DNA from: Moniliella sp. 'wahieum'
Lineage: Eukaryota
Reading direction: 5' to 3'
Length of the DNA stretch: 64,000 nt
Assembly: GCA_003971905.1 (NCBI GenBank)
Contig: RSEE01000007.1
Coordinates: 1 to 64,000, forward strand
The notes beneath the pieces were generated by a model. That model saw nothing but the letters and a program-made list of their open reading frames with translations, was not told the origin of the DNA and searched no databases. Shown here piece by piece: positions 9,598 to 64,000 of this stretch (its first letter is position 1; every line of letters begins with the position of its first letter). A program made the translations under genes and the position numbers.

Positions 9598-10815
9598 TCA
9601 TGCATCATGCATCATGCATCATGCGCGACGCGAGTGACACGTGACGTGAGTCACTAGCTCAAGCGAGTCCCCAGCAAGTCAGTTAATGCATGTGCATGAG
9701 CGCCATGGGCGCTTTGGGCATACGATCTACGACCTCGTGACCGGTGGCCGGTGGCCGGGCACCAGTGATGCAGCTGATGCAGTGACGTCGTCGGTAACAT
9801 TAGGCATCACCCGTCACGCGTCACGCGTCACTCATGAACGCGTAACGCGTAAGGCGCAAAGGTCAACGCGTTACGCGTTAACGCTTAACGTGTAATGCTT
9901 GGCGCTTGATGCGGAACCAGGCTTGAAACATAGCGTCTAACGTTTAACGTTTAACGTTTTAACCTCGGCCTCATTCATCATGCATCAGCGCCATCAGCGC
10001 ATCAGCTTAAACCGGTAGGGCCGGTAACTCCGGTAGCTGGTAACCGGTAACCGGTAAGCCTTACCACTAGGCTGTAACTGCAACCGATAATCGAATGGCC
10101 GCCACGGCCGGTAAATGCTACCAAGCGCTAAGCTGCAACGGGGACGCTGGAACCGGCAATGTTCGGAGATGCTGAAATTCCCTCAGGCCCTCAGCGCCAG
10201 CGCCTCAGCTCAGCGCTCAGGCTCAGCCTTCAACCGGAGACCGGTGAAGCTGAAGCTTGAAGCTTGAAGCTCTTGAAGAGCTTGAAGCTTAAAGCTTAAA
10301 GCTTGAAGCTAGCGAAGTTTCAAGCTTCACGCGTCACCGGTCACCGTCACCAATCACGCTTCAAGAATTTATGCAGTGATCTCAGCGCCTCAGCGCCTCA
10401 GCGCCTCAGCTCCGAGATGTCAGATCTCAGGATCTCAGAAGCGTTAACGTACTGAGAGCGTCCAAGACCCCCGACTAAGTTCTGGGACAGAGTGGCACCG
10501 GGATCTGAGAACTGACTTGGATTTGTTGGGTCCGCCGCCGCGGCAGATGGCCGGTGGACATTGGACAGGCCATTGCACAAATCCCAACATTCGACGCACG
10601 TTGAACGTACCGAGAACTGAGCCCTGGGGCCTCCTGAGTAAGTACTGGACGTACTGAACTGAGTACGCAGTGAGATCCTGTGCGGTACGTTACATGCTAC
10701 GCACTACTATGCAGAGCAGGCTGCAGCCGAATTGGGGCGCTGCGTGTGCAGGTGACCGGCCTGACACCAGTGACTAGTAGCTAGTAACTATAAGTAACTC
10801 GTAACCGGTGACCAC
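9598..10815. repeat. Patch of heptad TNA-[4-bp palindrome]-TNA micro-repeats (patch 1)
   Basis: TCA(TGCA)TCA x3 at 9598-9621; TCA(CGCG)TCA x2 9814-9830; TTA(ACGT)TTA 9944-9953; TAA(CCGG)TAA x2 10041-10057; TGA(AGCT)TGA x2 10251-10267; TCA-AGCT-TCA-CGCG-TCA-CCGG-TCA 10320-10343. Confidence 0.9.
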
Positions 10816-11850
10816 GGGGAGGAACGCCGTATGCGCGGTATGCGCCCTGGGGCGGCCGAATGCCCAGCGTACGTAGGTGGCACCAGCACCCAGCCTGCTG
10901 CGTCGAACCATATGGCGCAGGGAGACAGGGCGCAGCCAGGCGAAACACCGGGGCACAGTGGAGGCAGCGCCTTTGAATCGGGTGTTGCCGGCGCACGCTC
11001 CATGGCACTGCTGCAGCGGGCAGCATGGCGCTAGTGTCGGTGGACCCTCGCACCAGGCCACTCCTGCAGGGCCCAGACCCGCCGAGTCGTCCAAATCACT
11101 CCGGGTGGGGGGGGCGGGCAGGGCAGCAGTGTGCGCTGCTGGGTGTGCGCCTGGCAGCCCGAGCAGGGCGATGGGATGCGTGAGACTCATCGCTGCGCTG
11201 CACGGAGCGGCGGGGGGCTGGGCAGGCGTGCCGGCTGCGTCGCTGAGCAGCAGCTGCGAAAGCCACCAACGCGCAGCAGCCCGCGCGGCGTCGCGGCTGG
11301 GCTGGTTGGGCTGGGCTGGCTCTGGCACACTCGCCCTGCGCGGGCGCGGGCAGCGTGCACCCTCGCGCCGGCGGTGTCTGCGACGTGGCAGCCAGGGCCA
11401 CCGGCATGCGGGCTGTGTCGCGCGCTGGTTGGAACACACCGCGTGCGTGTGCCCGGCGCACAGCCCGCCAGTGCCGCGCCCTGCACCACCCAGCCCGCTG
11501 TGTGTGCCCGGGTGCCACGGGGGACAGGCACACGAGGCTGCTTCAGCGCGGGTGCTGCTGCCCCGCACGGGGCCAGTGCCAGCCCGCCGCCCAGCGGGCC
11601 CTGGCGCCGCACGCACGCGGGCAGTGTGCGGCGCCTCTAGCAAATTTCGGACGGCCCCTCGGCCCCACCCGCACCAGCGGCGGCCACACTGCCCGCGTGC
11701 GCCGCCCTCGCCCCGCCCGCCCGCTGCGGCCCGGCGCCCGATGCTTCTCACACAGCAGTGCGACCCAGCCCGGCTGAATCTGACAGCGCTGGTCTTGGAT
11801 CCGTCGCCCGTCTTGCTTCGTCCTCTCCGCCTCCTCCCCCCACACGCGCC

Positions 11851-13587
11851 ATGTCCTACCCGTCCGCCGCCTTCTTCCCCGGCGCCTCGGCCGACGCCTC
11901 CTTCGCGCCCCACCCCTCCGCGCCTCCCAGGTGCCCGCCTCCTCGCCCCGCCACAGCGCTGGCACGCGCCTCCGCCCGCCATGCAGAGCTCCTGGGGGTA
12001 CGCCGTCCCGCCTCCTTCCGACGGCACCGCCCTCCCCCCCCACGCGTCCCCCGCCCCCCCGGCGTCGCGTCCGACCCGGCCTTGGCGTCCGGCAGCCTCT
12101 CGGCCCAGCCGGTGCTCTCCGCCCCCTCTGCCCCCGGCGTCGGCAGCCCCACAATGGGCGAGGTGCGCGCCATGCCCTTGACGCCCATGACCGGCGGCGA
12201 AGGCGCGCCCCTTTCCATCCGTCTTACTCTCCCCGCCAACGCGCTCGAACCGCGCCTGCCCGGCCAACCAGACCAGGGCCAGTTCCATATTGTCTTTGGT
12301 TCCTTTCTGGTCGTGCCCATGTGGGCATGGAGCCGCCGCCGGCACAGGGCATGGCGTCCATTGTCCTCTCCACCAACGTGCCCATCCTCACCGATCTGCC
12401 TGGAGTGAACCCCGACAATGTTGGAATCCGTGTCAAGCGCGTCTGGCTGGCTCCCGCACTCCTTCGCTTATCACTGTCGGGTCCTACCGCATGCGTACGT
12501 GTTTTTCCTTCCGTCTCACCCCCTCGCGCCCTCATGCGCTCGTCCCCTCGTCCCCTCTCCCCATGATGCTTCGTTTTCCTGACTTGCTTTTGTTTCTTGG
12601 TCTTTGCAGTTCCCAAGACGGCAGCGCACATGCGTCCCAACGGCACCCCTACCTCGTCGCCCGACCTGTGGAATATGCCACCGCAGGCCAAGCTAGAGTC
12701 ACAGTATGGGCCCGTGCGGACTCAAAGCGGCGGTCGCCGCGAGTTGGGTTGGGACCCGGCCAACCCTTACATGCGTGGCCGATACTCTGAGCACGCGCCC
12801 GGCCGGCCTGGCTCTCCCAGTCGGGCCATGGTCCACCGCACTTCGCAGCCGATGATGATGAACGGCGTGCCGCCCAACATGAATGCGCCTGCGCTCGTGC
12901 GCGCGCCTCAATCGAGCAACCCGAACGACAACAGTTTCATGACCAATCCTCTCTCCAACCGTCCCCGGGCGCAACTCAAGTTGCAGGGTGATTTGGGATC
13001 AATGGCTTACGGATGGGCCGTGGATGAGTTGCAAGAGGGCCGTCGCTTGGTCCAATTCTGGCGCAAACAAGAAGGCACCACCATCCACGCCACCTTCCGC
13101 CCCATTTTGTTGGACCAATATGTGAAGAACTCGATTGTCGTTTCGTGCATCTTCCGTGCCGACCGCAACGAGTGCTACATCCTCTGTCGACACCATCCTT
13201 TTGCTCGAGGCCCTCGTCGCCAGCCGCTTCTCGATTGAGGAGAAGAACCGCATTCGGCGTAACCTGGAGGGCTTCCACCCCGAGACGGTGCGCAAGCACT
13301 CGGGTGGGTCGGAGGACTTTTTCAAACGCATCATGAACTTCAAGGACCCCAAGCCCCGCACGATCGCCAAGGACGTGAAGACCTTCTCGTGGAAGGTGCT
13401 GGAGCACGCGCTGTGCAAGGTGATTGAAAAATATGTGGGTGATGTGCCGGAAATGGATGCACACGCTCCCGTGCCTCCTGCTCGTGCCCCCGAGCCGGGC
13501 ATGCACTTTGTCCCAGGCCAGCCGCCAGCACATGGCTTGCCTCCGCACGCGATGGGTGCGCCGTTGCCGCCTTCTGGGCTGCAGTAA
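11851..13587 (+). CDS. medA: Medusa (MedA/Acr1-type) developmental transcriptional regulator
   Basis: LKLQGDLGSMAYGW..RRLVQFWRKQEG..IVVSCI, then SVDTILLLEALVASRFSIEEKNRIRRNLEGF..FFKRIMNFKDPKPRTIAKDVKTFSWKVLEHALCKVIEKY, the conserved MedA C-terminal domain. Intron 12495-12609; frameshifts; start approximate. Confidence 0.85.
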
Positions 13588-14450
13588 AGTACCGGGATGC
13601 AGTGGTGGTGCTGCGCGCCCAATTCCTGTCCTTCCTGATTCATTTTCGTTCTGTCGGCCTCCTTTTATCGTTCCCCCGCACCGCCGTCGCGCCGGTCCCG
13701 GTCCTCTCCCACCCCTCTCGCCCTCGCGCTCGCCCGTACCGGAGCCTCACAAGCCCGCACCCGAATCGCGCTGTCGTTGTCCTGACTGCAACGCAATTGT
13801 CCTTCGATAATCTCTGTTCTTGCACTTTTGTGTCCGGTTGTTGGGGATCTGTGCTTTACTCTGCACCAGCCCCCTTCCCACCTTCATCCCTCTTATCCTA
13901 TCCCGTCCCCGTTCGTCCCTGCCTCTCTGTTGCGCTCTCCTCTGTTAAGCTAAGCTTGTTCACCCTTACTGTACTCTTTTGTCGGCCGGAGAGCCTCGGG
14001 CCGGGCGAGGGCGAGGGCCAAGCCGCACCCCCCTACCTCTGCGACAAGAAAAAGAACGAAGAACGCGTCTGGGCATGGGGTCGTGCTCATGCTGGCCTTT
14101 TGAGGTGTTGGGGCCGACGCTCTGTGCTGTTGCTTCTCCCCCTCCCCTATCCCCCCCCCCCCCCATCCTCTCCCTTCTCCCTTCCCCTCTCCGCACCCGT
14201 TTCCGCACCCGCTCCCGCACCGCTCCCGCTCTCGCCCTGGCTCTGGCTCTGGCTCCGGGCCACGCTTCCGGCGCTAGCCCCAGCGCGATAGACGTGCCGA
14301 AGCATGAAGCTGCCTGCGTGACGCGCACTTGTCCCGTCTGTCCCCATAGCATCAGCTCGCACGTAGTACTACTCCCCCCTTGGCGCCTCGTGGAAAGAGG
14401 CGGTGTGACGCGTGGTTAGTGACTGGTTGGGATCGCATGCTTCCGAACAT

Positions 14451-14850
14451 GTCGATGATCGATGATGGACGAGATGTGTGATCGATGATCCACCGATGAT
14501 ATCGATGATAGAACGTTGACGTTGATTGTGAACAGTTTGAGCGAGGGCTCGGCGAACGCCGCTCCGGCGCTCCGGCGCTCAGGCCCAGGTCTTGATGCTT
14601 AACTCAATACTCAGGTCTGGGATTCTGAGACGTGAGCATGTGAGAGAAGAGAGTACCGAGTACTGAGTACTGAGTCCTCACTGAGTACTGAGTAGGACTC
14701 AAGCCTCAAGGCCTCAGGCCTCAAGCTTCAAGCTTCAAGATGGGAGGACTGGGCGCATTGGATATTGGACGCTGAACGTGCTGAACGTACTATAAATCTC
14801 CTGGTGCCTGCAGCCTGCACCTGGGGCTTGAGGCTCACCTGAGATCTGAG
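14451..14850. repeat. Heptad TNA-palindrome patch 2
   Basis: TGA(TCGA)TGA 14456-14465; TGA(GTAC)TGA 14664-14673; TCA-GGCC-TCA-AGCT-TCA-AGCT-TCA 14714-14737; TGA(GATC)TGA 14840-14849. Confidence 0.88.
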
Positions 14851-15432
14851 ACGAGTAGTGCCATGTGCGCTAAGTACACTCCAAGAGCGATCAAATGTTC
14901 GTGAGACCGACGATCTGACATGCTGGCACACGATTAGCTCTTGGGATCCTGGGTTCTTGGGACATGGGAGCACCGGCCGGAGGGGTGAGTGTACGGCGTC
15001 AAGCTTCACAAAGTCAGGACAGAGTTGCGGAGCTCAACAGGCGGACCTCTGAGCGGTGATTAAGATTGTGTGATTACGATTGTGCGCCATGGTGTCGATG
15101 ATTGGTCGAAGGTTCACACGTTCACATTCATATGGAGCTGCTTGCTCTCTACGGCCTACGGCGAGGAATAGGACGCGTGGTCTCGGGTGTGCTGTGGACG
15201 AGGGCGCGTAGCATGGGATGAGATGAGGGCCCAAGCCTTGGGCCGATGGTGACCGTGGGCGCTGTGGGCGCTGGGCGGAGGTAGGTGTTCCACTCGGATT
15301 TGTGTACAGCACAGGGCGAAACAGGCGCGACAGGCGAAACAGGGCAGATTCAGAGGTGGAAACGAAGACAGGCGGACGGCGCTGAGGCGATGAGGCTGAG
15401 AGGGGCTCTATGTACATGGTACACCAGGCAAG

Positions 15433-15846
15433 AGAGTACGTGACTGAGTACGTGACTGAGTTGAGACTGAGTACACGTGGTACTGAGTCGAGTGGGGTCC
15501 AACGTGCATGTTCCATGCGCAATTCACTACGATTAAGAATGCACGCCACCGTAAAGCAGTGCATATTCCATCCAAATGTTCAAACCCGGTGGCTGCAACA
15601 GTCGAGCTGCGATCTGCGACGGCCGGTTGAAATACTAAGACGAGGATGAGCCGATGAGGGTACGTGGAATACATAACAGTGAGGCCTGAGGTTATGTAGT
15701 CTGCATCTGAGATCTGAGGATCTGAGCCCCATGTGCTGAGACTAATGCATGAGATGCATGAGATCGAGACCTGAGTCACTAGTCACGCGTCGCGAGTCAC
15801 GCGTCAGTGCCTACGTGACGCGTGGCGCGTGATGCATGATGCATGA
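15433..15846. repeat. Heptad TNA-palindrome patch 3
   Basis: GAGTACGTGACT x2 near 15434-15457; TGA(GATC)TGA 15708-15717; TCA-CTAG-TCA-CGCG 15776-15789; TGA-CGCG-TGG-CGCG-TGA-TGCA-TGA-TGCA-TGA 15816-15846. Confidence 0.85.
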
Positions 15847-17224
15847 TGGTGCTGGATGGTCCAACCTCTTCCAGGCGACACGACAGGACACGACGCGACG
15901 CGTGTGCAGTACGCAGTCTATTTGTCTCTCGGCCGTGCGCTGTCTGCCCACCGCCATTGGATGGTATACATGGCATGCGGCCAAGTGTCATTAATCCTTC
16001 GAGACAGGTCCGCGGGCCATGTGGGGCTCCGGGGCGGATGGGATGATTTGGATTGGGCCTTTATAAGCTTTAAGCTATAGGCGGGGGTATTCGATGACGG
16101 GGACCGCGCGGGGTGACCCAACCAGCGGGATTATTGGAGCCACAGCCTCAGACTGAGTGCTCATTGCATCAACAGTTTTCCTATGCTCAGGAAACACATG
16201 CTATGGTTTAGTAGTTCTGGCATCCAGTGGTTGCTTGCCAGAGGCTCCCACAAACCTCCGTCATGCCGACACTTCCACCTGTCGAGTTGCGTTCCGCTTC
16301 AGAGGAGAGCGTTGAATACACTGAGCAACATTATGTGTACAAGGGCATCATGTGCCGCTTGGATGGAAACCCCTGGTCCCTACGCCATGTTACTGGGCTT
16401 GTCACGTACACACGGTGCAGCCCAAGGAGAGGGTGGCTACTTCCAAAAGTTCGCCCTATAAGTGCTGACACCTCGTTGATGGCGTGCGTCGATTGCGTTC
16501 AACGGAACTTCCCTTGCTCAACGTAAGCTGCCCCGGCTGATTGGCTGCCTTTCAAAACGGTCAGACAGGTTGGAGGGACAAAGATCCATTAGGACTACTC
16601 ACCATAACGGGTTGCCGTGAGTCAGCCTCTCCTAGCACTTGCTCCTGTCGTCGATCGTGTGTGCAGTTAAACAAGGCTCTACAAGCGCCCCCATTCCCGC
16701 CCCCCTCCTCTCCACCGACTGGGAAACACCATCGAGCCGATCTTGTTTCCAATTCCTATTGTTCTACATCTGCTCCTGCCTATACTCCTGGTCGACGGGG
16801 ATCCTTTTCCCCGCCAACCATTCTTGTCATCCCCCTCTACCCTCTCGCCTATCTTGTCCGACTCCTGCCCGTTTTCCAGCCAATTGATTCAGTGCAGGGA
16901 ACTTCATCTTGTTAGCGTCCGACTCCTCCTCCGACCTCGTCCTCCCTGCAATCTGTCAGTCCAGTCGCGTGAGCCCTCCTCTGGCCGCGTCAATTCCCAG
17001 TCTCTATCCAGTCTCAGTTGAGACGATGTTGGTTCCCCTCTCCGGCCTCCCGTCCCTAAGTCCCGGAGGCTTCAGACACGTTACTACGGCCGAAAAGCCG
17101 GTGCAGACGCAGCCTTGCCACACGAGCAGCCGCCCCACCAAGGGCCTCTCCTCGTCCCTATAGCTCCGCTCGGATCCACCAACCAGCCCAAGCCCGAAAC
17201 TACTGTGAATCGACCTACCGTCGC

Positions 17225-30664: not shown

Positions 30665-31955
30665 TCCATCTCCTGTCTAACCCCAGCCCAGCCCACTCCT
30701 TGCCCCCCACCCTGTACAAAGGGGCGTAACCGCTCAAAATACATTTCTCATCGCATATTAACGTTTCTCCCCTGATGAGTCTGTGAAGGATCCTACTCCG
30801 AGGGGTAGGATGAGAAGAGGAACGGACGTGTTGCTATTCCACGATACGGGTAGGCTGTGCACGACGCGATAATAACGTGCCCGGAGACAGACCTTGAGTT
30901 GCGCTTGTCCGAGGCAACGGGAAGTGTTTGGAAGAGTATGCGTCTGCAGCTCAAGGAAGTGGGTCTGGCGCGGCCGCGGAAGGAATCTTCAGCAGTGCCC
31001 TTCAAGTGTGTCAGCAAACCGACAGCAGCTTCGCCGTGAGTCCGATAAGCGGGGCATCCGAAAAACGAGCGAGCAAGGTAGCAGCAAACTCAGAGTGTCA
31101 GGATGGGACGAGCGGGCCGACCCCGTGCAAAAGCCACAAGCATTGAGAATAGCCCAGTGTGCTCGAACTGAAGCCACGTATTTTGACGGAGAAAATGAGA
31201 GGGAGGAAGCTGGGAGTCGGTTGCGCAGTGGGAGCTGGCCACAGGAAACATGGATGTTTGTTTCCATTGCTCATGTGGCCTCTCGACAGAATATGACCGA
31301 AACGGAATTGCGTTCAGGGGATAGGGAATACTGTCATGGTGGGTGCGGGAATATAGGTTCAATGCACAATGAACTTCCTGGAGTCGGCGTTGTAAGTGGC
31401 ATCCTTAGCAAAGTCGAGGTGTACTATATCATCGCCTGCGGGATAAGGTCGATAGATGTCTTTCCGTCACGCTACGACCAAACACTTGAGCCCACAGTCA
31501 TCAAAAAGTGATTGGCACTCTTCAAGTTAATAGAGGAAAAGAGCCATCGCAGTAAAAACGGTTGGGGGGAGGTCCGACATGAACAAACAAACACAGAAGG
31601 TCCACTGGGATACAGGGACAGGGATAATTACAGGGATAGTTATACAAAGAGAGAGGGCCAATCCCCGTCGGCTTGCACACGACCCAGCCATCGGTACTAA
31701 GAGTTATGTTACGAATAGCCTGACTGGGATGTTGAGTGTGAAGTGAGTGCGTTCTTGTCCTTGAAGACGGATGGCCGCGCTTCCGAATCACGTTACGCAG
31801 GGAGGGTGTAATGCAGCTCTCCCCGCGCAGTCCTATTCGCATGAGGATGAGGAGGGGTAAGACTGGATACGATACGGATGCATCCGTGGCATGGGTGGCT
31901 GGTTCGTAATAAAGCCTGGTGTAAAACTCAGTACTCACGAGGCGTGCACGCTCTG

Positions 31956-33623
31956 TCACGGAAGAGCCTGAAGCAGGATCCACGGTAGCCGCAACGGTAA
32001 CCGCAGTGGTTCAGTTGGCGGCGCCCTGAGACCCAGAATACGCAGTTCCACCGCGTGTCTAGAGCCGCGCGGCCTACGCACAAACCCTCTGCCCTGACTC
32101 ACCTCACTCCACTGGGAAGAACCACTGCTCCAGGACGAATGGGGACCGGAGGAAAAAGAACTCTGACGGGACGCAGGGCGAAGACGCGAACTGCGTCCAC
32201 TTGCGCTCGGGATAAAGGACTGAGTGGGCGTCGCGACCCGACTCGTGATCAACATCAAAAGACCATCATAGTCTGCATGAGGGTTGCCGGCGGCAAAAGT
32301 AGGATCGTGGAGACCATTGAGCAAAATGGACCGTAGTACCCAGTCAGGGAGGGGTTGACGAAAGCGCGCGCGCAGTTTGTAAGCGAGGTTGCGGTGCCGT
32401 TCAACATATGCCGCCCCTGACGAAGTCCCAATACTAAGGTCAATAAGTTGCTGAAGAAGGGCAACTTGCTCGGCCGGTGACGACTGGCCATAGCGTTGAA
32501 CCAGGATGCGGAATAGCTCGGAAGCCATGCTGCCAGTCTCAGAGGATGGGATGGTGGAGCTAACATCGCGGTGTAGATGGGCCAAGAGCGGAGCGTGGAG
32601 TTTATGATCCAGAAGACTGTTGTAATGAGGATCGTCTTGGCCGTCCTGAATCAACGCACGTGCACCGTCCACCGCATCGTCCAATCGGCCCAGGGCCAAA
32701 TCCACCCAGGGCCAAAAGAACTCTTGTCCGAAAATGTATTTGTCCTCAGCGTTGACGCTGCGCGTAAGTTTGGCCAGAGACTGGAAGGGCTCAGATTTGG
32801 GCCCCGCCAAATCCAATGTGGGGTGAGTGTTGCGATTCTGTAAAACTAGAAAAGCAGCACGGCAGCCCACATCAGGACCCCAACACGCCTTTGCCATGTC
32901 CACCAGATTGTCCGGGCTTAAATTATGAGCGCTTGCCTTCGTCAATGCGGCAATAACTTCCTCGTCGACAGGAGGAGGCCCATCAGAATGTGCAGGCACA
33001 GGTACAGACAAAGGAGTTGTGGTGGATGCAGCCTTCGGAGTCTGACCCGAGGGTGGGATCGTAACGGGGTCCCGAAGGCCAGGGGCGTCTTGGGATAGGT
33101 CGGAGGAACCTTGGGATGGGTCGGAGAGACCTTGGGATGGGTTGGAGAGACCTTGGGATGGATCGGATGGATCGGATGGATCTTGGGTTGGGTTGAGTGA
33201 GGGCAGGAGGACGGAAGGGGAAAACAAATCTGCCATGTCGTAGTCGAGCATGTTGTCGTACAACAGCCTACGCAATTCGCCGTCCTTGCGCACGATGAAC
33301 CGGCGAAGCAAGGACTGGTCGCTGCGCACAGGCTTAACAGATTCCCCGACAATTTCCACGATATCCTTTTCGAGAGATGAGAATCGATCCGAGAAAGCGC
33401 CTAAAAGGATCTCAAAATCAAGATAGTTGTCATCGGTGACCTTGGAATCCTCAAGGCCATTCTGTCGTTCAAGAGCAGTGAGAAGAGAGTGGTATTGGTG
33501 GAGCTGATCCTTGACCTGTTGAAAGTCACGTTCGAGGGTGAGTGCTTCGGCAGGAAGAGGAGGCGGAAGCAATTCTTCTGCGGTCATCGGAAGCGGACGA
33601 GGTAGCCTTGGAGTGTCACTCAT
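31956..33623 (-). mobile_element. Ty1/copia-type Gag-like ORF (555 aa) with no recognisable pol
   Basis: The C-terminal ASELFRILVQRYGQSSPAEQVALLQQLIDL..YVERHRNLAYKL..LPDWVLRSILLNGL matches the copia Gag (Retrotran_gag_2/UBN2) pattern. N-terminal coiled coil. It lies in a block (~30.8-34.3 kb) that looks less GC-rich than the flanking genes. Confidence 0.6.
33090..33186 (-). repeat. 21-bp and 9-bp coding tandem repeats inside the Gag-like ORF
   Basis: CCTTGGGATGGGT(C/T)GGAGAGA repeats and GGATCGGAT repeats encode DPSDPSDPSQGLSNPSQGLSDPSQGSSDLSQD. Confidence 0.85.
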
Positions 33624-39385: not shown

Positions 39386-39785
39386 GAAGGCCCGTCGAGA
39401 AAAACAAAACTGCATTGCCATTCTTGCCATTGCCATCTTCATCGTCATCATTATAGCCATCACCATGGCCACCATGCCATCGTCTTGGCGGCTGCCGGCG
39501 CTGGAGCAGACGAGGCAGATGAGGATGAAATCGCTATAGGGGACGAGACTGATGGGCAGGTACTAATTAATCAACGCCAGTGCACAGTTTGGACAAGGAA
39601 AGGCCAGGCGTGCCAATCGGTTACGTAACCCATTCTCGAATCCCCTCGCCTGGCCAACGCAGCCGCACAGACGCAACCACGGGCATTCCGCCGCTGCCCC
39701 GCCCCGCTTCGCCCCCTCCACCCAGTCCACCACCACCACCACCACCACCACCTTCGCGTGCCAGCTGCCTGCCGCCGTCCCCGCC

Positions 39786-41714: not shown

Positions 41715-42950
41715 TACCAGTACCAATGTTAGTTGTGACCAATATCAAAAGCTTGCAGACCCCGTGAGCTGCAGTGTGCTTTCCAAAGGCACGACACAAA
41801 CTTCATCTAGAATCGGCGAGAACGAGATAGGGACACACGTGCTATGCCACCAACGCGCACTTAGAGTCTCGGCCATAACTTAACCGACATGTGACGACCA
41901 TCGCTTGTCATCCTGCCCACGGCCTCGTGGTCTTATAACGGTGGAGTGCGTGAAGGCATAACAAGAATGGGGTGGTAGTAAGAGCATCCAAGGGAGTTAG
42001 TGTGTGAGAGGAGGATTCAACGTTTTTGCACAAATCACGGGTTTCTTACCACTGCATATGCTTCCATCATCTTGGGGCAGTGGCAGGCGAGCAAGGCTGG
42101 GGAAGAGATGGTGTGGATGCAATCAGGGGGTCGGAGGCGGCCCGAAGGCGCAAACAAAAGGAGGGGTGAAACAGAGGCGGGACGGGGCCGCCGCCGCCCA
42201 CACATCTCTTCTACCCACGTGACCAAAAGTACATGATCATGAGAGATGCCATCAAGATCGCCTACAGGACTCCTGCACATTTTGAGACTCTTTTCCTGAA
42301 GTTATCAAGCAACACATGGAGGATGAACGGGTCAGTTTATCCGCAGCGTTTCTTTGTCCACAGCCTTAAGCTCTATCAATGATATGGTTGCAGAAGAAGA
42401 GGAGTCTTATTGCTACAGACACGATGGTTCATCGTCCACATGTCTGCCACCCTTAGTATCCACTGGCGCAACATTCGGCCTTCGGAAAAAGCGAATGAAG
42501 GGGGTCCAGACCTGCTCGCAACCCCGAGCCTCTCTTGCATGGGTGGAACGATGAGACCAGCTAAGCGCTCTAACAGAGCACACGCCGGATGAGCAAACCT
42601 GGTAAGTAGGCGCAGCGTTTCTTTGTCTCTTTGTCTTCAATAAGTTTTGATGAACGCGACAGAACTCGGTGGGCGGAGTCTTCCAAACTCCCGCACACGC
42701 GCTACATGATGCCAGTTGAGGCCTGAGGTCCCCACAAAACTTCTCTCCCCAAATGGATGTCGGTACCGGTCATTGCCGCACTGGCACAGCTGGTGCTGCG
42801 GTACCGTCCAACCATCCCTCATGCACATCATGCATCACCTTTACCGACGGTCAACACCTCAACGCGTCAACGATCCCCATCAGGATCATGTCCGTCGTGA
42901 CATGCATGTGTGACAAATGTGAAGGCAAGTGCGGCTTCGGCTCCGACAAC

Positions 42951-43030
42951 CTTGAAGCTTGAAGCTTGAACCTTGAACCTTGAACAGCTTGAACGTTGAA
43001 CCTTGAACGTCTTGAACGTCTTGAAGCTTG
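42951..43030. repeat. Heptad TNA-palindrome patch 4
   Basis: TGA-AGCT-TGA-AGCT-TGA-ACCT-TGA-ACCT-TGA..TGA-ACGT-TGA at 42953-42999, plus 9-bp variants TTGAACGTC. Confidence 0.9.
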
Positions 43031-43639
43031 GCCGGCCGGCTTGACCGAACATACAGGAACATACAATACACCCGAACTATGTGGAATGTGAGACACTCGC
43101 GCTGACATATGTCTCAGATAGAACACTCCCCCCACACACCTTCCTCGCGGACTGCAAAACTACAAGTGGGACGTTCGGAAAGGAGTCCGAGAGTTAAAGG
43201 AAAGAGCCGCAGGAAAATGGGCGAAGCGGAGCATGCATATCTCAGTTGCATTAATCAAGTCTTCTTTCGCCGTTGTTGTGTTTCTCATGTCCGCACGCCC
43301 TCTCGGCACGTCCTATAGTTTTGGGACGATTCCCAAGGCACCGACAGACTGTCGTGCTGCGACGAAGATGCAACGAGGTGTGAGAATGTTGGCTCTGAGA
43401 ATCTGATGTACGGGAATGAGCAAGGTGTGCCGTAAATATGTGTATGATATGTGGGATACGATCTCTGACACAGACAGAGAAGGAGCCCGGAAGGAAGGAG
43501 AACGAAAAGCGACCAAAATGGGGCACAATAAAGAGCACACCACACTCCTGCCACGGCCTTCTTCTCAAGCTCTCAAGTGCTATTGTGATTGATATTTGAT
43601 GTTGATGATTAGTGTTAGTGACTGGCATCTGTCACTCCC

Positions 43640-43985
43640 ATGTCACATGTCACACATGTCCTGGCGTCTGCCTCCAGAGGCCAGCGGACGGTGAATGTTC
43701 CTGGCGGGGTTCGATGGGCGAGGATGCAGTGACTGCCCACGTACTGAGTCAGTCCTCCGGGGTATTGGAGGCATTGCCATCACCTTCGTCAGGACCAGGC
43801 ACATTGGCAGTGTCGGAGACTGCTATTCTGAGATCTCTGAGTGCGTCTGGGGATCTGAGATCTGGGGCCGGTGAGTACTGAGTACTGTCAAGCTTGTCAA
43901 GTACGAATACTGAGTTCAGAGCCCTGCCTGAGGACTGAGGCACTGTTGCAACTCGTACGCATGCATCATGCATCATGCATCATGC
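43640..43985. repeat. Heptad TNA-palindrome patch 5
   Basis: TCA(CATG)TCA 43643-43652; TGA(GTAC)TGA 43872-43881; TCA(TGCA)TCA x2 43966-43982; TGAGATCT variants. Confidence 0.85.
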
Positions 43986-44529
43986 GACAGGCGGGACGCA
44001 CTGCGCCTGGGCTGAGATTGAGCTGAGACCGCCGTCTGGGAAGAGTGCGAGTGATGGGGATGCATCGTTTGGGACAGGCGATGCATGATGCGGAGAACCG
44101 AGGTTCAGCGGGGGGCGACTGTGCCGCGCCTGGGCGGGCCGGAGTCTGGGCCCAGTCTGGGCCGAGCGCCCATCGGTCTAGGCCGTGCGGCGGCGGGAGC
44201 GCGCGGACACTGGCCCGCTGCCCGCCTGTTCTCACACAACCACACGACCGGCGTTTGTGCCGTCGCACCGCCGTCGCTCTGCTTTGGGGGCCAGCAAAAA
44301 AAACAAGGCGGGGTTGGACGTGCTTCGTCCTTGCTGGGTGATCGCTGTTGTCCAGCCTTGGTGGGCGCGCGGTTATAGGCGCGTCGTTGAGGCCCACGGC
44401 AGGCGCTGCCCGAACATCTTCCCTCGCTGCACCGCCCTCTGGTCACCTCCAGTCCCTTATTCCCACCTCGTCCTGGCCTCCATTCCGACCGCCACCACCA
44501 CCACTCCCCCCTCCTTTCTCCTTTGTGGG

Positions 44530-46419
44530 ATGATGCAGCAGCCATCCGCCGCCACCGCATACGTTGCGGACCTTCCCCTGTCCTACCCCTCCTCCCTCCC
44601 GCCGCCACAATCACCGCACCACCACCACCAGCCAACCACCTTGCCCGACATCTTCCTCCACACCCAACACTCCCTGCCTCAAATGCACCAGTCGCTCGCA
44701 CCTTCTACCTTTCCCTCTGCTGCCTTGTTCCCGCCCTCTCCCTCTGCGCAAACGGCACCACCAGCTTCGGCTGCCATCGCTTCTGCACTTCCCACCTCCC
44801 CCCACACTCAGCAGGACCACGACGAGCTTCACTTTTTTCTTCATGGTCACCGCGATGGTCCGATGGCTGCTGATCTTTCGCTTGGTGCCCTCGCACACCA
44901 AGCCACAGAACTCACTCACTTCCCCCCGTCCCACCCCCACCCTCTCTCTCTCTCTCCAAGCGAGCCGATCTCGTCTCCTCGCACGTCCATCCCATCCAAC
45001 CCCATCCCCATCCGGCGAGGCAGCAAAGGCGTCAGGAAGTCCAGCAAGCGCAACCCGCACTTTGTTACCAAGCTATTTTATATGTTGGAGGACGGATCAT
45101 GGAATGATGTGGTACGATGGTCCTACGCCCGCGACAGTTTCATCATCGTGGTACGTCCCCCCCTTCCCCGATCTGCGGTGTTGTGAGAGAGGTGTACAAA
45201 TGAAACTAGAGAACTGACGTTGGGCGGGACTTTTTGTTGTGTTGTGGGATTGTGTGGGCACAGAGCATGGACAACTTTAACAACCACATCCTTCCCCATC
45301 ACTTTAAGCATTCCAATTTTTCTAGCTTTGTCCGCCAACTGAACAAGTACGACTTCCACAAGGTGAAGAAGAACCCAGTTTTGCTGGCAAAGCTCTTTGA
45401 CATGGAGCCAGACCAGGCCCAGCCAGCCATGTTTGAGCAAATGTGGGAGTTTAAACACCATTCGTTCTGTGCTGGTCAACCAGACCTGCTCGACTTGATC
45501 CAGCGCAAGCCTCCCACCAATTCGGTCGCTGCCCCTGGTACCATCACGACTAGTACCGCGTCTGGATCTGGAACGGAACGAGCCTCCCCTCTTGCCCCTG
45601 CGGCCGAAACTATTTCCGACCCGCTTGTCTCTCCACCTTGATCCCCCCCGCCACAGAGTGTGGTGGAAGAAATGTCCGACCTCAAGCACCAACTGAGCGG
45701 GTTGCAACAGGTCCAGGACCACTTGGTCCAGCATCTCGGCACGCTCTCCAAGCAGTACGAGATGGTGGTTACGGACATCGTGCAGGTGCAAGAGAATTTG
45801 GTGCACCAGGGCAAGCTGATGCAGATTATCGTTGGCCACCTGGCCACCACCTCCTCTTCCTCCACCGCCATCAAACCGAGTCCCACTCTTTCCGTCCCAG
45901 TGGATCTATCGTCGTTGGCGTCCAGTCTTGCGCTTTTTGGTCGCTCGCAAGCCGAGCTGCCAGACAAGAAGACGAGGAGCATGTCGCTCCCGGAAAATGG
46001 AACTGCTGGGTCCTGCTTATCGCTCTCCCGCCAGTGGTGCAGCATCTGCAGCAACCCCTTGTGTCTAGCTCTTCCTTGGCGCTCTCCTTTGTTCGCACCC
46101 TGCACAGTTGCTCTGCGCCTCGGACTCGGGCATTGGGAGTGGTGCGCTGAAGCAAGAGGAGCCTAGCTTGCTTCCTCCCACTTATGCGGCACAGCAAGGA
46201 GAGTCCCCTTCAAATGGTGTGGTGGGTTGGCAACAGGCTCAGCAGAATGAGCTCACCTCGCCTGGTTCGGTCGGAGGGAGTTGCGTACGATCTACTTGCA
46301 TTGGTTCGGCTCCTCCTGTGCACTCCAGCACCATTAGCCCACTCAAGCGCCCTTGCAGTAGCGTGTCCGCTGCACCCGAGTTTGGCTCGCCCCTCCACAA
46401 ACGGGTTCGGATCGCTTGA
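44530..46419 (+). CDS. HSF-type DNA-binding transcription factor, Skn7/Prr1-like DBD plus coiled coil, no receiver domain seen
   Basis: FVTKLFYMLED..VVRWS..DSFIIV | FNNHILPHHFKHSNFSSFVRQLNKYDFHKVK..WEFKH. Intron 45151-45263; coiled coil at 45660-45840; ends KRVRIA*. Confidence 0.85.
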
Positions 46420-47438
46420 TGTTCCCTCCTTGCTCTCCCGGTTTCCCCCCTGGCGCCGTGCGTGGTTAGCACAGAGGCAGGGGAGCTCTGTCTCATCCAC
46501 AGTCAATTCGTTTTTTTTGGTATCTATCGTTTCTCCTGTTGTTCCCTTTCTTTGCTGTATGGGGTTGTACGTTCTCTGTTTACTTTGGGTTCAAGGCGGG
46601 TCTGATCTTGCATTGCAATCCTTTTCCCCTTGGCAAGGCGAACTGGATTTTGCAATGGCTTTTCGTCACGGGTTTTGGTTCGGGCAGAAATGGCCCTTTT
46701 CTTCGTTCAATGGATCCGTCTCACGTTCACCGTTTCGAGGGACGCAGGCTGGGGCCAGTCTCTTCCCCCCTCGCACGTCCCCGGTTGATATCTGTCATGG
46801 TGTTTATTCTTTTTTATGTTCTTTCCGTCTCCTCTTCCTCTTCCTCTTCCTCGCTCTCGCATCGATCATTGCGCCTCATCCCTCTCTCTGCCTTTCCTTT
46901 TTCTCCCTTGCAAAACCTCAGTCGGTCTTCTCCGGTCGGTAACCCTTGTCACCTGTCATTTGTCTCTGCCATCTCCACTCGCATGCATATGTTATTCTCC
47001 ACTTCCCCACTGTCTTGCGGTACATATCATTTGTTCATATGTTGCCGTCACTCTAGCAGTCGCTGTCTCGCTCGATTGTAAACTTGCCATAATACCTGTG
47101 CGGAATCGCAGAGAGAGGAGATGCGGCAGATTATCAGGAAGAAGACGGCCATGCAAGCGGCGAGTTCAGTCCGGTGAATGGAGTTCAAGTGCTGGGAGCA
47201 TACCGACACAAAGGGAAACCCCAACCGAGAACAGACCAAGGGCCGAGAGTCCACCTGGTGAGCATGTATCGCCAGATGTGAATGGGTGGGTGCGTACGTG
47301 TAAGTTGGATGCGGGTGTTGCGAAACCACGGCTATACGAATCGTAAGTCCACCTTCCCTATACCTGGTGCATTGCCAGCCCACATGATGCACATGATGAA
47401 GACGAGCATATTGGATGTGTCTCCATACACGGGCAGAT

Positions 47439-47524
47439 GGGCGGATAGCTCAGTTGGTAGAGCGCACGCTTCGCATCTCCCTTGTGCTTGTGTGAGGTCT
47501 GGGGTTCGATTCCCTATTCGTCCA
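47439..47524 (+). tRNA. tRNA-Ala (anticodon CGC) with a 13-nt intron at position 37/38
   Basis: Acceptor stem GGGCGGA/TTCGTCC with G3:U70; D arm GCTC/GAGC; anticodon stem CACGC/GTGTG with TT-CGC-A; intron 47476-47488; T arm TGGGG-TTCGATT-CCCTA. Confidence 0.95.
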
Positions 47525-47525
47525 A

Positions 47526-48542: not shown

Positions 48543-48600
48543 AGGTGGTGGTGGTGGTGGTGTGGTGGTGGTGGTGGTGGTGGTGGTGGTGGTGGTGGTG
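48543..48600. repeat. (GGT)n/(CAC)n microsatellite upstream of YIP3
   Basis: Direct reading. Confidence 0.95.
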
Positions 48601-50050
48601 GCGCTGGTGGTGGCGCTGGCGCTGGCGTTGGCGCTGGACGCTGGCTGGCGGCGCGGGACCAAGTGACGAGAGCCAAGTGACACGTGGCGGCCGTCTCACC
48701 GCCGCACCGCAGCTACCGCAGCTGAGCGCTGGACGGCCTTGAGCGAGCGAGCTGAGGGCTGCCTGGAGCCACGTGACACTGTGCGCCTCCATGGGCGGAA
48801 CGAGGGGGTTCGGGCGGAATGCGAGCGCGGCATGTGCACCACTGCGACTGTGAAACCAATTTTTGTGCGCGTGCGGTGGAGGCCTCCCAGCCAACCACCC
48901 AGCAGATCGAGCACATCGGGCACATCGACATTTCTGGTAAGCAAGCCCGTTCGCCACAGCTCTGGTTCATCGTTCACGTTCATCTGGAAAAGCCCACATC
49001 CCGCAGGGCGCTCAGCGCTCACAACGCGCTGGATCCCTAGCTTGGCGGCGCGGAGCTTGGAAGCTAAACTCTGTGCGGCAGCTGGCCTCTATAGGTCTCT
49101 GGTGTTTTTTGGAGTCGCAATTGCGAGCACAGCGTCTTTTGAGTTATAGATCGGTGGCCCCCTCGGATCGCCCATCTGGCCAAGGCCCTTTCCATGGCCG
49201 CGAGGCTGTGGCTGGAAATGGGCGCTGACGTGCGGCGGGCGTAAGGTGTAAGGCCTAACCGGCTAACCCCCGTGACAGCGTGACCAGCCATGACGCGTGG
49301 CTGCCCTTTGTTATGTGGTGGTTGGTGTACGCGGGATTATGCGCTTGTGACTGGGGCGCTTCCTTCTGGCCCACAGCCAATCAAGTCGTGGGCCTGCCTC
49401 GACTGCGTTGACCAAATCTAATTCCCATGGGCTGTCAATTTCCTCTCGTTGTTGCTGCCTGGCACACCCTTTGGGTGTGTGGGGCAAAAAAGGAGGCGAC
49501 AATACGTCGATTGTACAATTGGGTGCTCGATTTTGTGGCCAGAGTCGGTCGGGTGTTGTTTGGCAGGAGAGAGAGAAGCGGAGGCGGCCACAGTGGCCCA
49601 GGCGCGTCCATCTCGATAGACAAAGCCTAGTAGAAGAGAGTGCCCGTGTGGATGGCTGTGGAGGGTTGGCGGGGGTTCTATTGGCGCTGAGACCTGAGCG
49701 GATTGTGCGTCGGCGGCAGCAGGCCGCAAGCAGCCGCGCCGTGCTGGCTGGAATGGCGGTGGGGCTGCCCGCTGCAACATCCAATGTTCAACCAGCCGGG
49801 GCAGGCGAGCGCACGCCAGCGGCCACGTGATGTGATTGTGGGCGCCGGCGGGGCGCTGGGCGTAGAACCAACCGGGAACGCACAAGTGCGGAAGCGTGGC
49901 CGGTGATCACCGCCGGGCCAGGCGGTGGCCAGCCTCCACCCGCCTGCTGCCTTTCCTCCCGCCCGCCTTGCCCAGCACGCCGACGGAGCCCAGTCGGCCT
50001 GCCCGCTCCTCCCGCCTGCCCCTCCCCCTCCCCCCGCGGCCCTGCCCGCC

Positions 50051-54420: not shown

Positions 54421-54769
54421 AGTAAGGGCATCGGCAGTTGGCGAGGCAGCAGGACTAGGTGGGGCCTTGGGACGACACTTGTCTCTGGCGATTGCAGCAC
54501 AGACGGCGTAGTCAATCGTGCACGTGCAACATTCAACACTTGACTTTCAAATTTCAACCGGCGCTTGCCAGTCGGTCGTGCGTACGTAATGCTTACCACA
54601 TAGGGCACGCATGTCACATGTCACATGCCACATGTCATGATTTGAGGATGGGTTCATCGATCCTCCGATCACCGCACCGGCCAGGCTGGGGCAGCCTCCT
54701 CGCCTCGCAGCCGGTGCCTGCCACCCTGAGCATTGCCACCACCACCATCGCCCTGCTCATCCGCCAGCC

Positions 54770-56146: not shown

Positions 56147-56794
56147 TATTTTCGTGCGGCAGACCTAGACCCGCCATCCGGACCAATGGGGCGGGACGCT
56201 TTGGAGACGGCATCAGGACTGTGACAAGGTACTTCTGATGTGCAAAATGTGCATAGACATCCGCAAAGGATTGATGTGGCAGCTTGGCCAGCCAACCTGC
56301 TGGGCATCTTCGCATCGACAAGTTCTTGTCTCACGCTTTTTTTGTTGGAATGAGCGATGTCTTGTGGCTACTCGATGCGATTCGCCGACCTAGATCACCC
56401 CCATTCCCTCCCCTCCCAGCCCTCTGTCTGCGAGCGAATAGGAATAGCGGCCAGGATGGACTGCAATTCTAACCTGCCCTAGTCATAGCAGTGTAATTGG
56501 AGAAGACGAACAAGACGATGGCATTCAACTTCAATGGTGACCGGTGAGGCTGTGAGGGCGAAAAACTGTATGCTGACAAAAAGGCTAGCTGTAGCGATGT
56601 GTTACGGCAGGAAGTAGATCAACAAGCAGGTGGTAACGAGTTGAGGAGTTGAGCGAAGAGGTGGCGCTAGTGCGGAAGAATAGAGGAATGCACCAGCGGT
56701 GTCTACTACACGTGCGACTTTCAACCTCAACAAGAACAAGATGGAGAGGCGTCATGTGGGAGCGCGGCGCAGACCAAATCTAGACCAAACGTCC

Positions 56795-60233: not shown

Positions 60234-60354
60234 GGCGATGGTGAGGCCGCAGAAAGAGAGCAGGGAGACGGGCGGTGGCGGGCTGGAGGCTGCTGGAGGC
60301 TGCTCGGGCCACGAAACGCGGCAGGGCGGAAGGGGAAGAAAAAGGCGGGTGGTG

Positions 60355-61387: not shown

Positions 61388-62689
61388 CTAAGCGTACCGA
61401 CCCGCGGTTTCCGCGCTAGAGGCAGAAGCGAGGTCCTGGGCAGACAGCGCCGATCGGGCGGGGCCGAGTCGTAGATTGGCTTCTTCCTCCTCGGCCTCCG
61501 TGTCGGCCTTGGGTTTGTCCGCCTCAAACTCCTCGAGCGACGGCCGAGACGGATTGAGGCTGCCGCGTAACGCGACTGGGTCGGGGCTGAACTCTTCTTG
61601 GACGGTGGTGATTTGGATGACGCCTGGTGGTGGTCCCCTGCTCTGGGTCTCGCGTGTGTGACCGGGGAAGCCAAAGCCTTCCTTGTGGCTTGGAGTGAGA
61701 GAGGGGAGGGCAAAGGCCGAGCCGTCTTTGGTCGCTGCAGAGGGCCGCATAAAGGAACCAATTTCTTTGGCCATACTCTTGCGGAAGGTGCCCAACATGC
61801 TGCTTCCCGGAGAAGAAGGCTTGGAAACTTCTTGACCAATCAATTCTTGATGGCTCCTCCGCGTGTTGAGCGTGGACAGGAGCGAGTTGCTCACTAGCTT
61901 TGGCGAGATGAGGTTGAACATCAAGTGCACATCCGACATGGGCTGGGATAGGAAGAGAGGGAATAATGTTAGCTGCTTCGTCCAACGAAGGCAACCCGTT
62001 TGCAGTGGCCACAGTGAGTGGGACAGATACGTACATGAGATGCAACAATGCTCATATGGCAAACGTCGCAAATCAGGGTCAAAACGGAGGTCTGCAGAAT
62101 GAGGTTCTTGAGTTCAGAGATGCGCGAGTCGGTGGCAGAGAAGCCTGTCAAGGCGCGGCGGAGGGTGACGTAGAGCGCGATGGTTTCCAGCAAGTCACAG
62201 CTGACGATGCAGCAGCTCATGACCAGCACTGCGGGCTGGACCGTGTCGAGAGCATCAAACCGCTTGAGAATACCACAGCCGACCATGGTGGCCGTGCAGC
62301 CAACGATGCCACCAAAGGCCAAGAAGAGAATGATAGAGGTGAGCCACCACTGGCGCCGTAGAGAGTGAATCCTCCATGCCAAAAAGCATTCGACAATAAA
62401 GCAGCTAATTGCGCCCGACTCCATCGAGCCAATAAAGCTGGAACCAATATAAGCCAGATATTGAGGCTCTCATAGTGCCTCACAAGCCACCCCGACAAGG
62501 AATTGCAAGCGCACACCGTGTTCGTGATCTCAGCCATGGCTACAAGCGCGACGACGAGCTTCAAGCCCCAGGGGTCACGCACAAACCTGTCCAAAGCAGC
62601 CACAACTGGCAAATGGTAACGCCAAAGAGGATGAGGTTGACATAGAGCCCAATCAGCAGGTAGCCTGTGGTATTGGCGACAGACACCAT
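61388..62689 (-). CDS. Basidiomycete multi-pass membrane protein (DUF6534-like)
   Basis: GYLLIG, RFVRDPWGLKLVV, IVECFLAWRIHSL, CDLLETIALYVTLRRALTGFSATDSRISELKNLILQT, KLVSNSLLSTLNTR; probable intron near 61955-62032. Confidence 0.7.
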
Positions 62690-63054
62690 GGTGCAGGTAC
62701 GAGAAGAGGGAGAGGCAGGGGCCGGGGCTGGCGGTACAAAGAGCTGGAAATATGAAGAGGGATCGTGATGAGGTGGTGTGTTTAGGACGTTGTCGTCGAG
62801 GAGCGTGGAGAGTTGGTGGGGGTGGTTGGGAAAGGTAAGGGGGTCGTCATGAGGGTGGAGCGAGTTTTAACGTTAGCCCCCGACGAGAGGACCCCAATGG
62901 TCGTGAAACGGAGGAAGAGAGCGCAGAAGAGTAAGCTGTGTAAGTTTGATGCATGATATTCTTAGTCAGTGACCAGTTCGCTCCCGTCTTGTAGGTGGCC
63001 AGCACTACTTACCGGTTGCTAGGTACTCGTTATCCCCGTCTTATTGCGTGAGAG

Positions 63055-64000
63055 AGAGCTTGAGGCCTGGCTTCGAGATTGAGAGAGGACTCAGAGTACT
63101 GAGGCCGAGTACTGGCGGTACTGAGTACTGACGCCTTGAGCGAGCCTTCGGTGGCCGCATCCATTAGTCAGTGGCGACAAGGAGCCACAGAGGTGCCACC
63201 CTCAGGCCTCAACGTCCTCGTCGTTGCAGCCGCCAAGCCCCAGACCCTGTGGGGCGTGGCCACACTGGTGGGGGCAAACGCCGACCTGCGCCCGCTCGTG
63301 GAGCTTGGTGGAGCGCATCCTGCATCCAGGCCGGCGTATACACCCCGATCGCAATATTACACGCTTCAAATCTCAGATTCCAGATCTCACATTTCACGCC
63401 TCACAGCCTTCGCAGAAGCCTCTGTCGCACATCGACCCTCTGTATGTATCGACCCTCTGTATGTATCGACATGAGTGCAACATAGTCCGCGGAGCCGACG
63501 CCGGCGGCTTCAAGAAACTGAAAAGGCTCAGGCGCTCAGGCAAAACCTTGGCAACCTCCTGCTTCAACGTTCAACCCCGCCGATCCAGTACGTATATTAT
63601 TCCGTACTTCGCCCAGGTGGGGATCCAGACAGAGAGTATAATACAGCCCGTTACTAGTTACTCGGAGAGGCTCAGCGAGACTAGGCGGCTCAGCAGCTCA
63701 GCACCCCCTGCGCCTGAGAGGACCTGAGGATCTCAACGAGTAGTACGTAGTACTGGGCCTCAGGGCCTCAGGGGCTCGGGGCTTGGGGTAGAGTTGTGAC
63801 CGGTGTGACCTGAGGCTTCAAGCTTCACTAGCTTCACTGAGGTACTGAGGACTCGCCTGGGCGGCATGAAGCTTGAAGCTTCAAGATGAAGCTTGAAGTT
63901 TGAAGCTTGAAGCTTGAAGAGCTTGAAGCCTCGTGGCGCGTGACGCGTGACTAGCATAGATCGGATCATCGATCATCGATCATCAGGATCGATCATCTCG
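63055..64000. repeat. Heptad TNA-palindrome patch 6 (runs off the window end)
   Basis: TGA(GTAC)TGA near 63122-63131; TCA(AGCT)TCA near 63818; TGA(AGCT)TGA runs 63867-63925; TGA-CGCG-TGA-CTAG 63941-63954; TCA(TCGA)TCA x2 63966-63982. Confidence 0.9.
63431..63470. repeat. 17-bp tandem duplication ATCGACCCTCTGTATGT x2.3
   Basis: Direct reading. Confidence 0.9.

Follow-up and report, generated by a model that had tools for sequence, protein, structure and literature searches.

The DNA analysed here is a 64-kb stretch (hereafter, the window) of fungal nuclear origin, with about 59% G+C and long open reading frames (ORFs) nearly devoid of introns. Its Pfam matches include Pkr1, PIG-F, DUF6534, DUF7082, a eukaryotic porin, Utp21, BolA and an eRF1-like protein, among others. 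The subject of this analysis is a set of patches between the genes, made of 7-bp units in which a T-N-A triplet is directly repeated around a 4-bp palindrome. A previous reading of the letters without database searches (the sequence-only reading) had listed six such non-coding patches, and all six were recovered from the density of a relaxed motif, which marks 9.5-10.5, 14.5-15.0, 15.5-16.0, 42.5-43.0, 43.5-44.0 and 63.0-64.0 kb (patches 1 to 6, in this order). The patches sit in long spacers, by the DUF7082 gene, between a kinase gene and the ORF at 44182, and by the DUF6534 gene. Comparison by eye of the list of motif matches with the Pfam spans found no match inside a Pfam-matched coding stretch.

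The sequence T-N-A, four bases and the same T-N-A occurs 118 times in the 64 kb, and the four bases form a palindrome in 69 of the 118, where 1 in 16 would be expected. The palindromic motif was found 2.0 ± 1.4 times, and at most 7 times, in 200 dinucleotide-preserving shuffles. Both the rule proposed by the sequence-only reading and the enrichment of palindromic over non-palindromic spacers within the window are thus real, and the 12 coordinates it had quoted for individual palindromes (9598, 9814, 9944, 10041, 10210, 10251, 14456, 14664, 14714, 14840, 15776 and 43643) were all confirmed, together with the array at 54614. Across the palindrome the base N is the same in 69 cases and different in 9, and the flanking T-N-A pairs are direct in 69 cases and complementary in 3. 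The middle base of the 69 motifs is C in 32, G in 27, A in 7 and T in 3. Thirteen different 4-bp palindromes occur; the 12 that contain G or C had already been recognized, while the earlier statement that the all-A/T ones were not seen has to be amended, as TCA-AATT-TCA is present once, at 54547. Perfect period-7 runs of at least 14 nt number 41, and their unit is a 6-bp palindrome plus one nucleotide in 30, with the form A-NNNN-T + N in 28 of those 30. An ordinary slippage microsatellite would have unconstrained units and ends at any phase; here, 30 of the 41 perfect runs obey one unit rule and the ends are phased.

Trinucleotides of the form TSA (S = G or C) have a density of 60 per kb across the 4,486 bases of the six patches, versus 24 per kb elsewhere. 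The commonest spacing between consecutive TSAs in the patches is a 4-base filler, with 69 cases of which 49 are palindromic, and the 5- and 6-base fillers are mostly a 4-bp palindrome with one or two additional bases. Consecutive TSAs share their middle base in 140 of 169 pairs inside the patches versus 210 of 403 outside (p = 9e-13), and one orientation persists over blocks of 5-14 units, which suits repeated events or slippage on an oriented unit. Isolated T-N-A-palindrome-T-N-A sequences outside the patches have the same N in 13 cases and a complementary N in 2, versus 23 and 16 for non-palindromic spacers (Fisher p = 0.049). As a control, and not as a set of relatives, we used metagenome contigs scanned for (TGAAGCT)3, which gave 121 loci covering 425,753 bases. 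In these loci, 28 matches have a palindrome other than AGCT; this density of 0.066 per kb is near the chance level, whereas the window has 54 such matches, or 0.84 per kb. No locus among the 121 contains more than two other palindrome types or shows the multi-palindrome grammar. The T-N-A/palindrome grammar is therefore specific to the lineage and no general property of heptamers.

The ends of the arrays tell which part of the unit is duplicated. We defined a period-7 run as a maximal stretch whose bases match the base seven positions further on, and 58 such runs contain the motif. Match lengths of 3, 4, 5, 6, 7, 8 and 9 were seen in 2, 6, 11, 11, 4, 6 and 3 runs, with a peak at 5 and 6, and this distribution rejects a 3-base duplication core with chance extension, for which length 3 would dominate (chi-square 125, p = 6e-27). 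The 3-bp TNA duplication of PIF/Harbinger type around a free 4-bp palindrome, as suggested by the sequence-only reading, is thus not supported. All 11 runs of match length 5 fall in boundary classes (2,0) or (0,2), and none in (1,1) (p = 0.012). Over the 58 runs, (0,2)/(2,0) is the commonest class with 14, (1,2)/(2,1) has 10, the class predicted by a 3-bp duplication, (0,0), has 2, the class predicted by a 7-bp duplication, (2,2), has 1, and (1,1) has 0. When a run starts exactly at the T of a unit (n = 27), it ends right after xy, the two bases that follow T-N-A, in 14 cases and one base later in 5 (p = 4.6e-6 and 8e-6), the expected count at any single phase being 3.9 of 27. Because the arrays start at T and stop at the centre of the palindrome, their structure is (TNAxy + y'x')n + TNAxy, T-N-A-x-y being duplicated and y'x' being the sole addition. 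This 5+2 anatomy reflects the birth of the arrays, because slippage leaves array ends in place.

A motif-free scan found 85 exact 5-base repeats at distance 7, versus 52 ± 7 in block shuffles, and 24 of the 85 contain an inverted-dinucleotide filler, versus 6.25 ± 2.6 in 100 block shuffles (maximum 13). Once these 24 repeats are oriented, 15 begin with T and 13 have A as their third base. No excess of the inverted-filler signature was found at periods 5 and 6. Between copies of TNAxy a gap of 2 bases dominates, with 54 and 53 cases on the two strands versus 4-22 for gaps of 0, 1, 3 and 4, and in 37 of 54 and 44 of 53 cases these two bases are reverse-complementary to the end of the left copy. 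Of the 76 leftmost NAxy...NAxy pairs, 62 have a T directly before them, which assigns the T to the site. Variants of 8 bases such as TCAGGG+CC and TCAGGC+GC keep the two inverted bases with a repeat 6 bases long, and in patch 4 TGAACGT is followed by TGAACCT, intermediates that represent a mutated site with a newly matched and an old filler.

Other divisions of the unit were tried and rejected. A split in which the 4-bp palindrome is the target and the TSAs are the element ends is ruled out by the constancy of the middle base over blocks, and is also disfavoured by the presence of only 6 isolated palindrome-TNA-palindrome cases. A symmetric 7-bp duplication of y'x'TNAxy is ruled out by the single run in class (2,2), and a 4-bp repeat with three inverted bases is less likely given the frequency of the preceding T. 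Fold-back copying returning at T is ruled out too, since 6-base fillers are palindromic in 0 of 25 cases and the 8-mers retain the two-base inversion.

Patch 1 (9450..10850), the largest, lies upstream of the DUF7082 gene and is a mosaic of heptamer arrays with the units TCATGCA, TCACGCG, TAACGCG, TTAACGT, TAACCGG, TGAAGCT, TCAGCGCC and others. It holds 78 TSA trinucleotides in single-orientation blocks, has a mean DNA fold z of -2.48, and contains the longest perfect array, (TCATGCA)3.9 on the + strand at 9598..9624, which begins exactly at T. Patch 2 (14400..15000), downstream of the DUF7082 gene, is made of TGATCGA, TGAGTAC, TCAGGCC, TCAAGCT and TGAGATC units, and patch 3 (15380..15920) of TGAGTAC variants, TGAGATC, TCACTAG, TCACGCG and TGATGCA. 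Patch 4 (42780..43060) shows the series TGAAGCT, TGAACCT, TGAACGT, with a single-base variant between two palindromic units. Patch 5 (43560..44120), upstream of the ORF at 44182-45183, contains TCACATG, TGAGATC, TGAGTAC and TCATGCA, and patch 6 (62900..64000), which runs off the end of the window, contains TGAGTAC, TCAGGCC, TCAGGGCC, TGAAGCT, TGACGCG and TCATCGA. Smaller arrays were found at 54545..54637, just beyond an ORF ending at 54540, where the TCA-AATT-TCA mentioned above is accompanied by (TCACATG)n, and at 7551..7575, where a double array TAATCGA / TAACCGG occupies the spacer ahead of the BolA gene.

Patch-versus-patch BLASTN gave matches at the level of the arrays only, and with no shared sequence beyond the arrays the patches are ruled out as copies of one long element. 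The end of patch 3 (15814-15848) repeats the start of patch 1 (9598-9632) in inverted form, with 93% identity over 30 nt (inverted pairs I14 and I19). The same array together with the same first bases beyond it is seen three times, at 9598-9632, 15814-15848 and 43960-43993, once inverted, and this recurrence could come from short-range copying between patches or from convergence of the process. The unit also exists as isolated minimal events. At 42717..42728 (+), TGAGG + CC + TGAGG consists of a 5-base repeat and its inverted last two bases, with unrelated flanks. The mirror orientation is found at 3153..3164 (-), as CCTGA + GG + CCTGA. Further events lie at 31926..31937 (-), as ACTCA + GT + ACTCA outside the ORF at 31959-33704, close to its end, and at 56536..56547 (-), as GGTGA + CC + GGTGA downstream of the eRF1-like gene.

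The proteins encoded in the window give an idea of the host. A MAP kinase kinase fragment shows 54-60% identity to proteins of Pseudozyma, Thecaphora, Testicularia, Tilletia, Ustilago, Sporisorium and Tilletiaria, and 82% to a protein from a read assembly, and the porin is 35-37% identical to proteins of Tilletiaria, Malassezia and Parajaminaea. Because of these MAP kinase kinase and porin identities, the host is placed in a deep-branching and poorly sampled lineage within or near Ustilaginomycotina. Two window proteins (P0001 and P0023) have their closest relatives, with 59% and 82% identity, only in read assemblies, named genomes being far more distant, and it seems from such comparisons that the host lineage is absent from named genome collections.

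Several other features of the window were recorded. An irregular 28-30-bp tandem repeat containing CCCTAA (98-324) resembles a degenerate telomere-associated repeat, and because this repeat opens the window, the window start is probably a chromosome end. The subtelomeric stretch also contains a 145-nt direct repeat in two copies (329-473 and 1009-1153; family D5), 90% alike and 680 bp apart. The region 10877-14288 reaches 75% G+C and has open frames in several phases on both strands; within it, the DUF7082 matches (12567-13584, + strand) are spread over two frames, suggesting an intron or a frame shift. The 582-aa ORF at 31959-33704, which has no Pfam match, contains at 33089-33182 a 21-bp repeat of 3.8 copies and, after it, a 9-bp repeat. 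The longest inverted matches of the window involve extended (CCA)n and (GGT)n/(TGGCGC)n tracts located on opposite strands (39727-39752 and 48544-48654), which are probably coding low-complexity repeats. The single tRNA, a tRNA-Arg with anticodon TCG (47438-47525), measures 88 nt, longer than a plain tRNA, and probably carries an intron. The tRNA and Rfam scans gave no match within or between the heptamer patches.

The starts and ends of the arrays suggest that the patches are accumulated scars of cutting and resealing through a hairpin rather than ordinary microsatellites. The scheme that we favour, to which we give somewhat less than an even chance, is a T-N-A-anchored cut with a 5-bp duplication, resealed after the opening of a hairpin two bases off its tip, as in hAT/Transib/RAG-type reactions, and followed by growth through slippage. 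In the seed event, T-N-A-x-y would become T-N-A-x-y + y'x' + T-N-A-x-y, a gain of 7 bp made of a 5-bp direct duplication and a two-base insert, y'x', reverse-complementary to the xy that ends the left copy. The starting point could be a break staggered by 5 bp or, if a cut-and-paste element was involved, the 5-bp target duplication that it leaves behind. One end would then pass through a closed hairpin, nicked two bases off the tip to yield palindromic (P) nucleotides, and be resealed, with T-N-A as the fixed edge of the cut. As each event would recreate the site twice, events would accumulate locally; if x or y then acquired a point mutation and the site was hit again, a new perfect palindrome would be written, and the resulting compound arrays would be enlarged by ordinary repeat slippage. 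Any palindrome can occur in such a scheme, because x and y are target bases from which the palindrome is rewritten at each event.

Hairpins form at the donor sites of hAT, Transib/RAG and Mutator-class transposases, and an offset of two bases corresponds to Artemis-type hairpin opening. Since inverted flank bases and a direct repeat occur together in the window, the donor-site scars of such hairpin-making transposases are matched. It is on these grounds that we infer a hairpin, its opening at two bases and a T-N-A-directed transposase or nuclease. Two elements of the sequence-only reading are retained here: the patches behave as if produced by a single recurrent process, with 7 bp gained at T-N-A sites at each step, and, of the two chemistries it named, the one that fits is that of hairpin-derived P nucleotides.

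Several observations weigh against this scheme. A scan of 130 of the 194 ORFs with at least 130 aa, the remainder being mostly overlapping frames, revealed no transposase domain, whether DDE_Tnp_4-type or RAG1-like, and neither inverted-repeat elements flanked by TNA repeats nor CAC-type inverted ends were seen in the window, the pairs detected being array-internal or due to chance. The site T-N-A-x-y is asymmetric and its inverted bases are one-sided, which is unlike a symmetric transposase dimer. Such a transposase would give fillers from both sides, and fillers derived from the TN end, the start of the right copy, are rare (4 and 7 on the two strands). Donor-site scars of Transib/RAG type would call for a symmetric, GC-rich target with P bases possible at both ends, and the Transib targets given in PMC1131882 are symmetric (cCASTGg), in contrast to the asymmetric T-N-A-x-y with its one-sided P bases. 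Matches between x' and the base preceding T are somewhat more frequent than expected from chance extension, with 10 runs of class (1,2)/(2,1) versus 14 of class (0,2)/(2,0), an excess that the model leaves unexplained, and at periods 8 and 9 there is little or no excess of the inverted-filler signature (5/26 and 6/16). Slippage growth and repeated enzymatic events are indistinguishable here, and the growth of the arrays may be all slippage. Finally, all counts come from one 64-kb window of one assembly and represent one strain.

The single-strand folding of the patches also counts against the scheme, with a mean DNA fold z of -1.30 in 105 patch windows (down to -12.8) versus -0.17 in 212 control windows, which is what an enzyme-free process would predict. 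Hairpin-prone microsatellites whose heptamers consist of a 6-bp palindrome and one further base have near-self-complementary strands that would fold in replication and expand faster than other heptamers, and template switching inside the fold would restore the palindromes once they had mutated. We consider this a serious rival, although on balance an unlikely one. It agrees with the mostly homogeneous nature of the arrays and with adjacent units that are often one substitution or indel apart, with non-palindromic intermediates (AGCT, ACCT, ACGT; GGCC, AGCC, AGCT). It also agrees with the inverted arrangement in patch 1, where, at 9804-9912, ACGCGT arrays of TAA type (spacer base A) on the left face those of TTA type (spacer base T) on the right across a 15-nt centre, as a 47-nt inverted repeat with 74% complementarity (pair I4). 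What folding leaves unexplained is the outer pair A...T in 28 of the 30 palindromic heptamer units, the signature at period 7 with none at 5 or 6, and the asymmetry of the arrays, with one end at T and the other at the palindrome centre. A hairpin would moreover favour complementary T-N-A triplets, and these are direct (69 same, 3 complementary). The 121 control loci, which carry the same heptamer array, lack the other palindromic heptamers as well.

The remaining explanations are much less probable. Patches adjoining gene starts and ends in long spacers could be functional arrays under selection in promoters or 3' regions, either sites for dimeric proteins of bZIP type with TGA/TCA half-sites or hairpin-forming transcripts. 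TGA and TCA do resemble bZIP half-sites. However, the half-sites here are direct and not inverted, the variable part takes nearly every palindrome, the arrays decay freely, and no sequence is common to the patches beyond the arrays. We therefore find this improbable, and the protein-binding array offered as an alternative by the sequence-only reading gains no support. Quite improbable too, and disfavoured, is a transposon with a 3-bp TNA duplication, PIF/Harbinger or Tc4/Tc5-like, that would leave at each excision TNA + two bases of each inverted end + TNA. The inverted ends would yield the palindrome automatically, TNA duplication is given as the classic Harbinger pattern (PMC12477816), Tc4 is described as duplicating TNA within CTNAG (bioRxiv 10.1101/2023.11.06.565293), and Mariner/Stowaway-type excision as leaving the duplication and end bases (PMC4561436). 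The repeat is nevertheless 5 bases long and not 3, as class (0,0) accounts for 2 of 58 runs and the run lengths reject a 3-base core; 13 palindromes would require as many families with different end dinucleotides, and no such element is found in the window. In addition, PMC4561436 describes PIF/Harbinger (mPing) excision as generally precise, through overhangs derived from the target-site duplication and with no footprint, and mPing with matching duplications as never seen to leave both. As for an assembly or base-calling artefact, it is highly improbable: no positive sign of one was seen, the grammar is diverse, degenerate and position-specific and avoids Pfam-matched coding stretches, and isolated 12-mers stand within otherwise ordinary sequence. 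We know of no artefact that writes such a rule.

If the scar scheme is carried over to the host, it becomes possible, though somewhat doubtful, that a deep-branching Ustilaginomycotina lineage has or had a T-N-A-directed cutter with hairpin chemistry. This cutter would be Transib/RAG- or hAT-like, free-living or domesticated, and would re-cut its own 5+2 scars, making microsatellites of every palindromic kind de novo and populating the spacers with them. Were the 5+2 reading true, the patches would constitute a natural archive of a hairpin-forming cut-and-join reaction, chemically the same as V(D)J recombination and hAT/Transib transposition, in a fungus with no known activity of this sort. 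Such a sequence-readable record of hairpin-opening repair would also represent an undescribed route to the birth of microsatellites, in which an enzyme creates and diversifies them and does not merely disturb them. Spacer length and promoter content would be shaped by a process countable base by base, and the unexplained short intergenic repeats of smut fungi, those of effector clusters included, would receive a mechanistic reading. In strain comparisons, the rule predicts the conversion of a single T-N-A-x-y site into a 12-mer.

Among known systems, the closest in anatomy are the footprints of hairpin-forming transposases (hAT such as Ac/Ds, Transib, Mutator class) and V(D)J coding joints, in which, as here, duplicated target bases are joined through an insert inverted from the adjoining flank. 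Ac/Ds footprints are described as palindromic sequences generated from flanking DNA via hairpins (PMC4561436), and the opened hairpin flanks of hAT, Transib and RAG1 as joined by end joining, often with footprints (PMC5499845). According to PMC1131882, 5-bp duplications are unique to Transib among the superfamilies of eukaryotic DNA transposons, those of hAT being 8 bp long, and Transib is represented in one basidiomycete, the soybean rust. The 5-base direct repeat that is the modal unit here is thus like Transib and unlike hAT. Flank-templated P bases, as in Transib/RAG, are found as well (37/54 and 44/53 of the gaps; 24 versus 6.25 ± 2.6 in the motif-free scan). Unlike all these footprints, the scars of the window are stacked in tandem arrays by the hundred. 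PIF/Harbinger and Tc4/Tc5 share with the window T-N-A as a recognized or duplicated target and differ from it by the length of the duplicated unit, which is 5 bases here; Tc4 is moreover reported, in bioRxiv 10.1101/2023.11.06.565293, only from nematodes, arthropods and tardigrades. Hairpin-forming expandable repeats are similar in that arrays are near-self-complementary, fold as single strands and are likely to gain units, and dissimilar in that, in the window, the T.A frame is fixed, only one period occurs, many different units adjoin one another and the array ends are asymmetric. The palindromic microsatellite repeats of Fusarium mitochondria (PMC7218506) are also short palindromic repeats in fungal spacers, proposed there to be mobile, but they are mitochondrial and differently organized, and the excerpt of that source contains nothing resembling the TNA + palindrome rule.

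Full-text literature searches returned no description of the rule or of the 5+2 anatomy, and a single lead. PMC4081816, with reference to Laurie et al. 2012 and Schirawski et al. 2010, mentions '10-bp repeats' in the genome of Ustilago maydis and the suggestion that they are transposon footprints. The supplements of that paper, in the 11 of 15 files searched, make no mention of them. Kinship with the host is distant, the MAP kinase kinases of the Ustilago group being only 54-60% identical to that of the window. By their description, the U. maydis repeats are nevertheless alike: they are numerous short intergenic repeats in a fungus of the same subphylum, TNA + 4 + TNA amounts to 10 bp, and their density is of similar order, with 26 in one gene cluster there versus about 1 per kb here. 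They may be the same phenomenon, a lead and not a result, as the two are set side by side by description only. Part of the rule seen in the window could have been published already.

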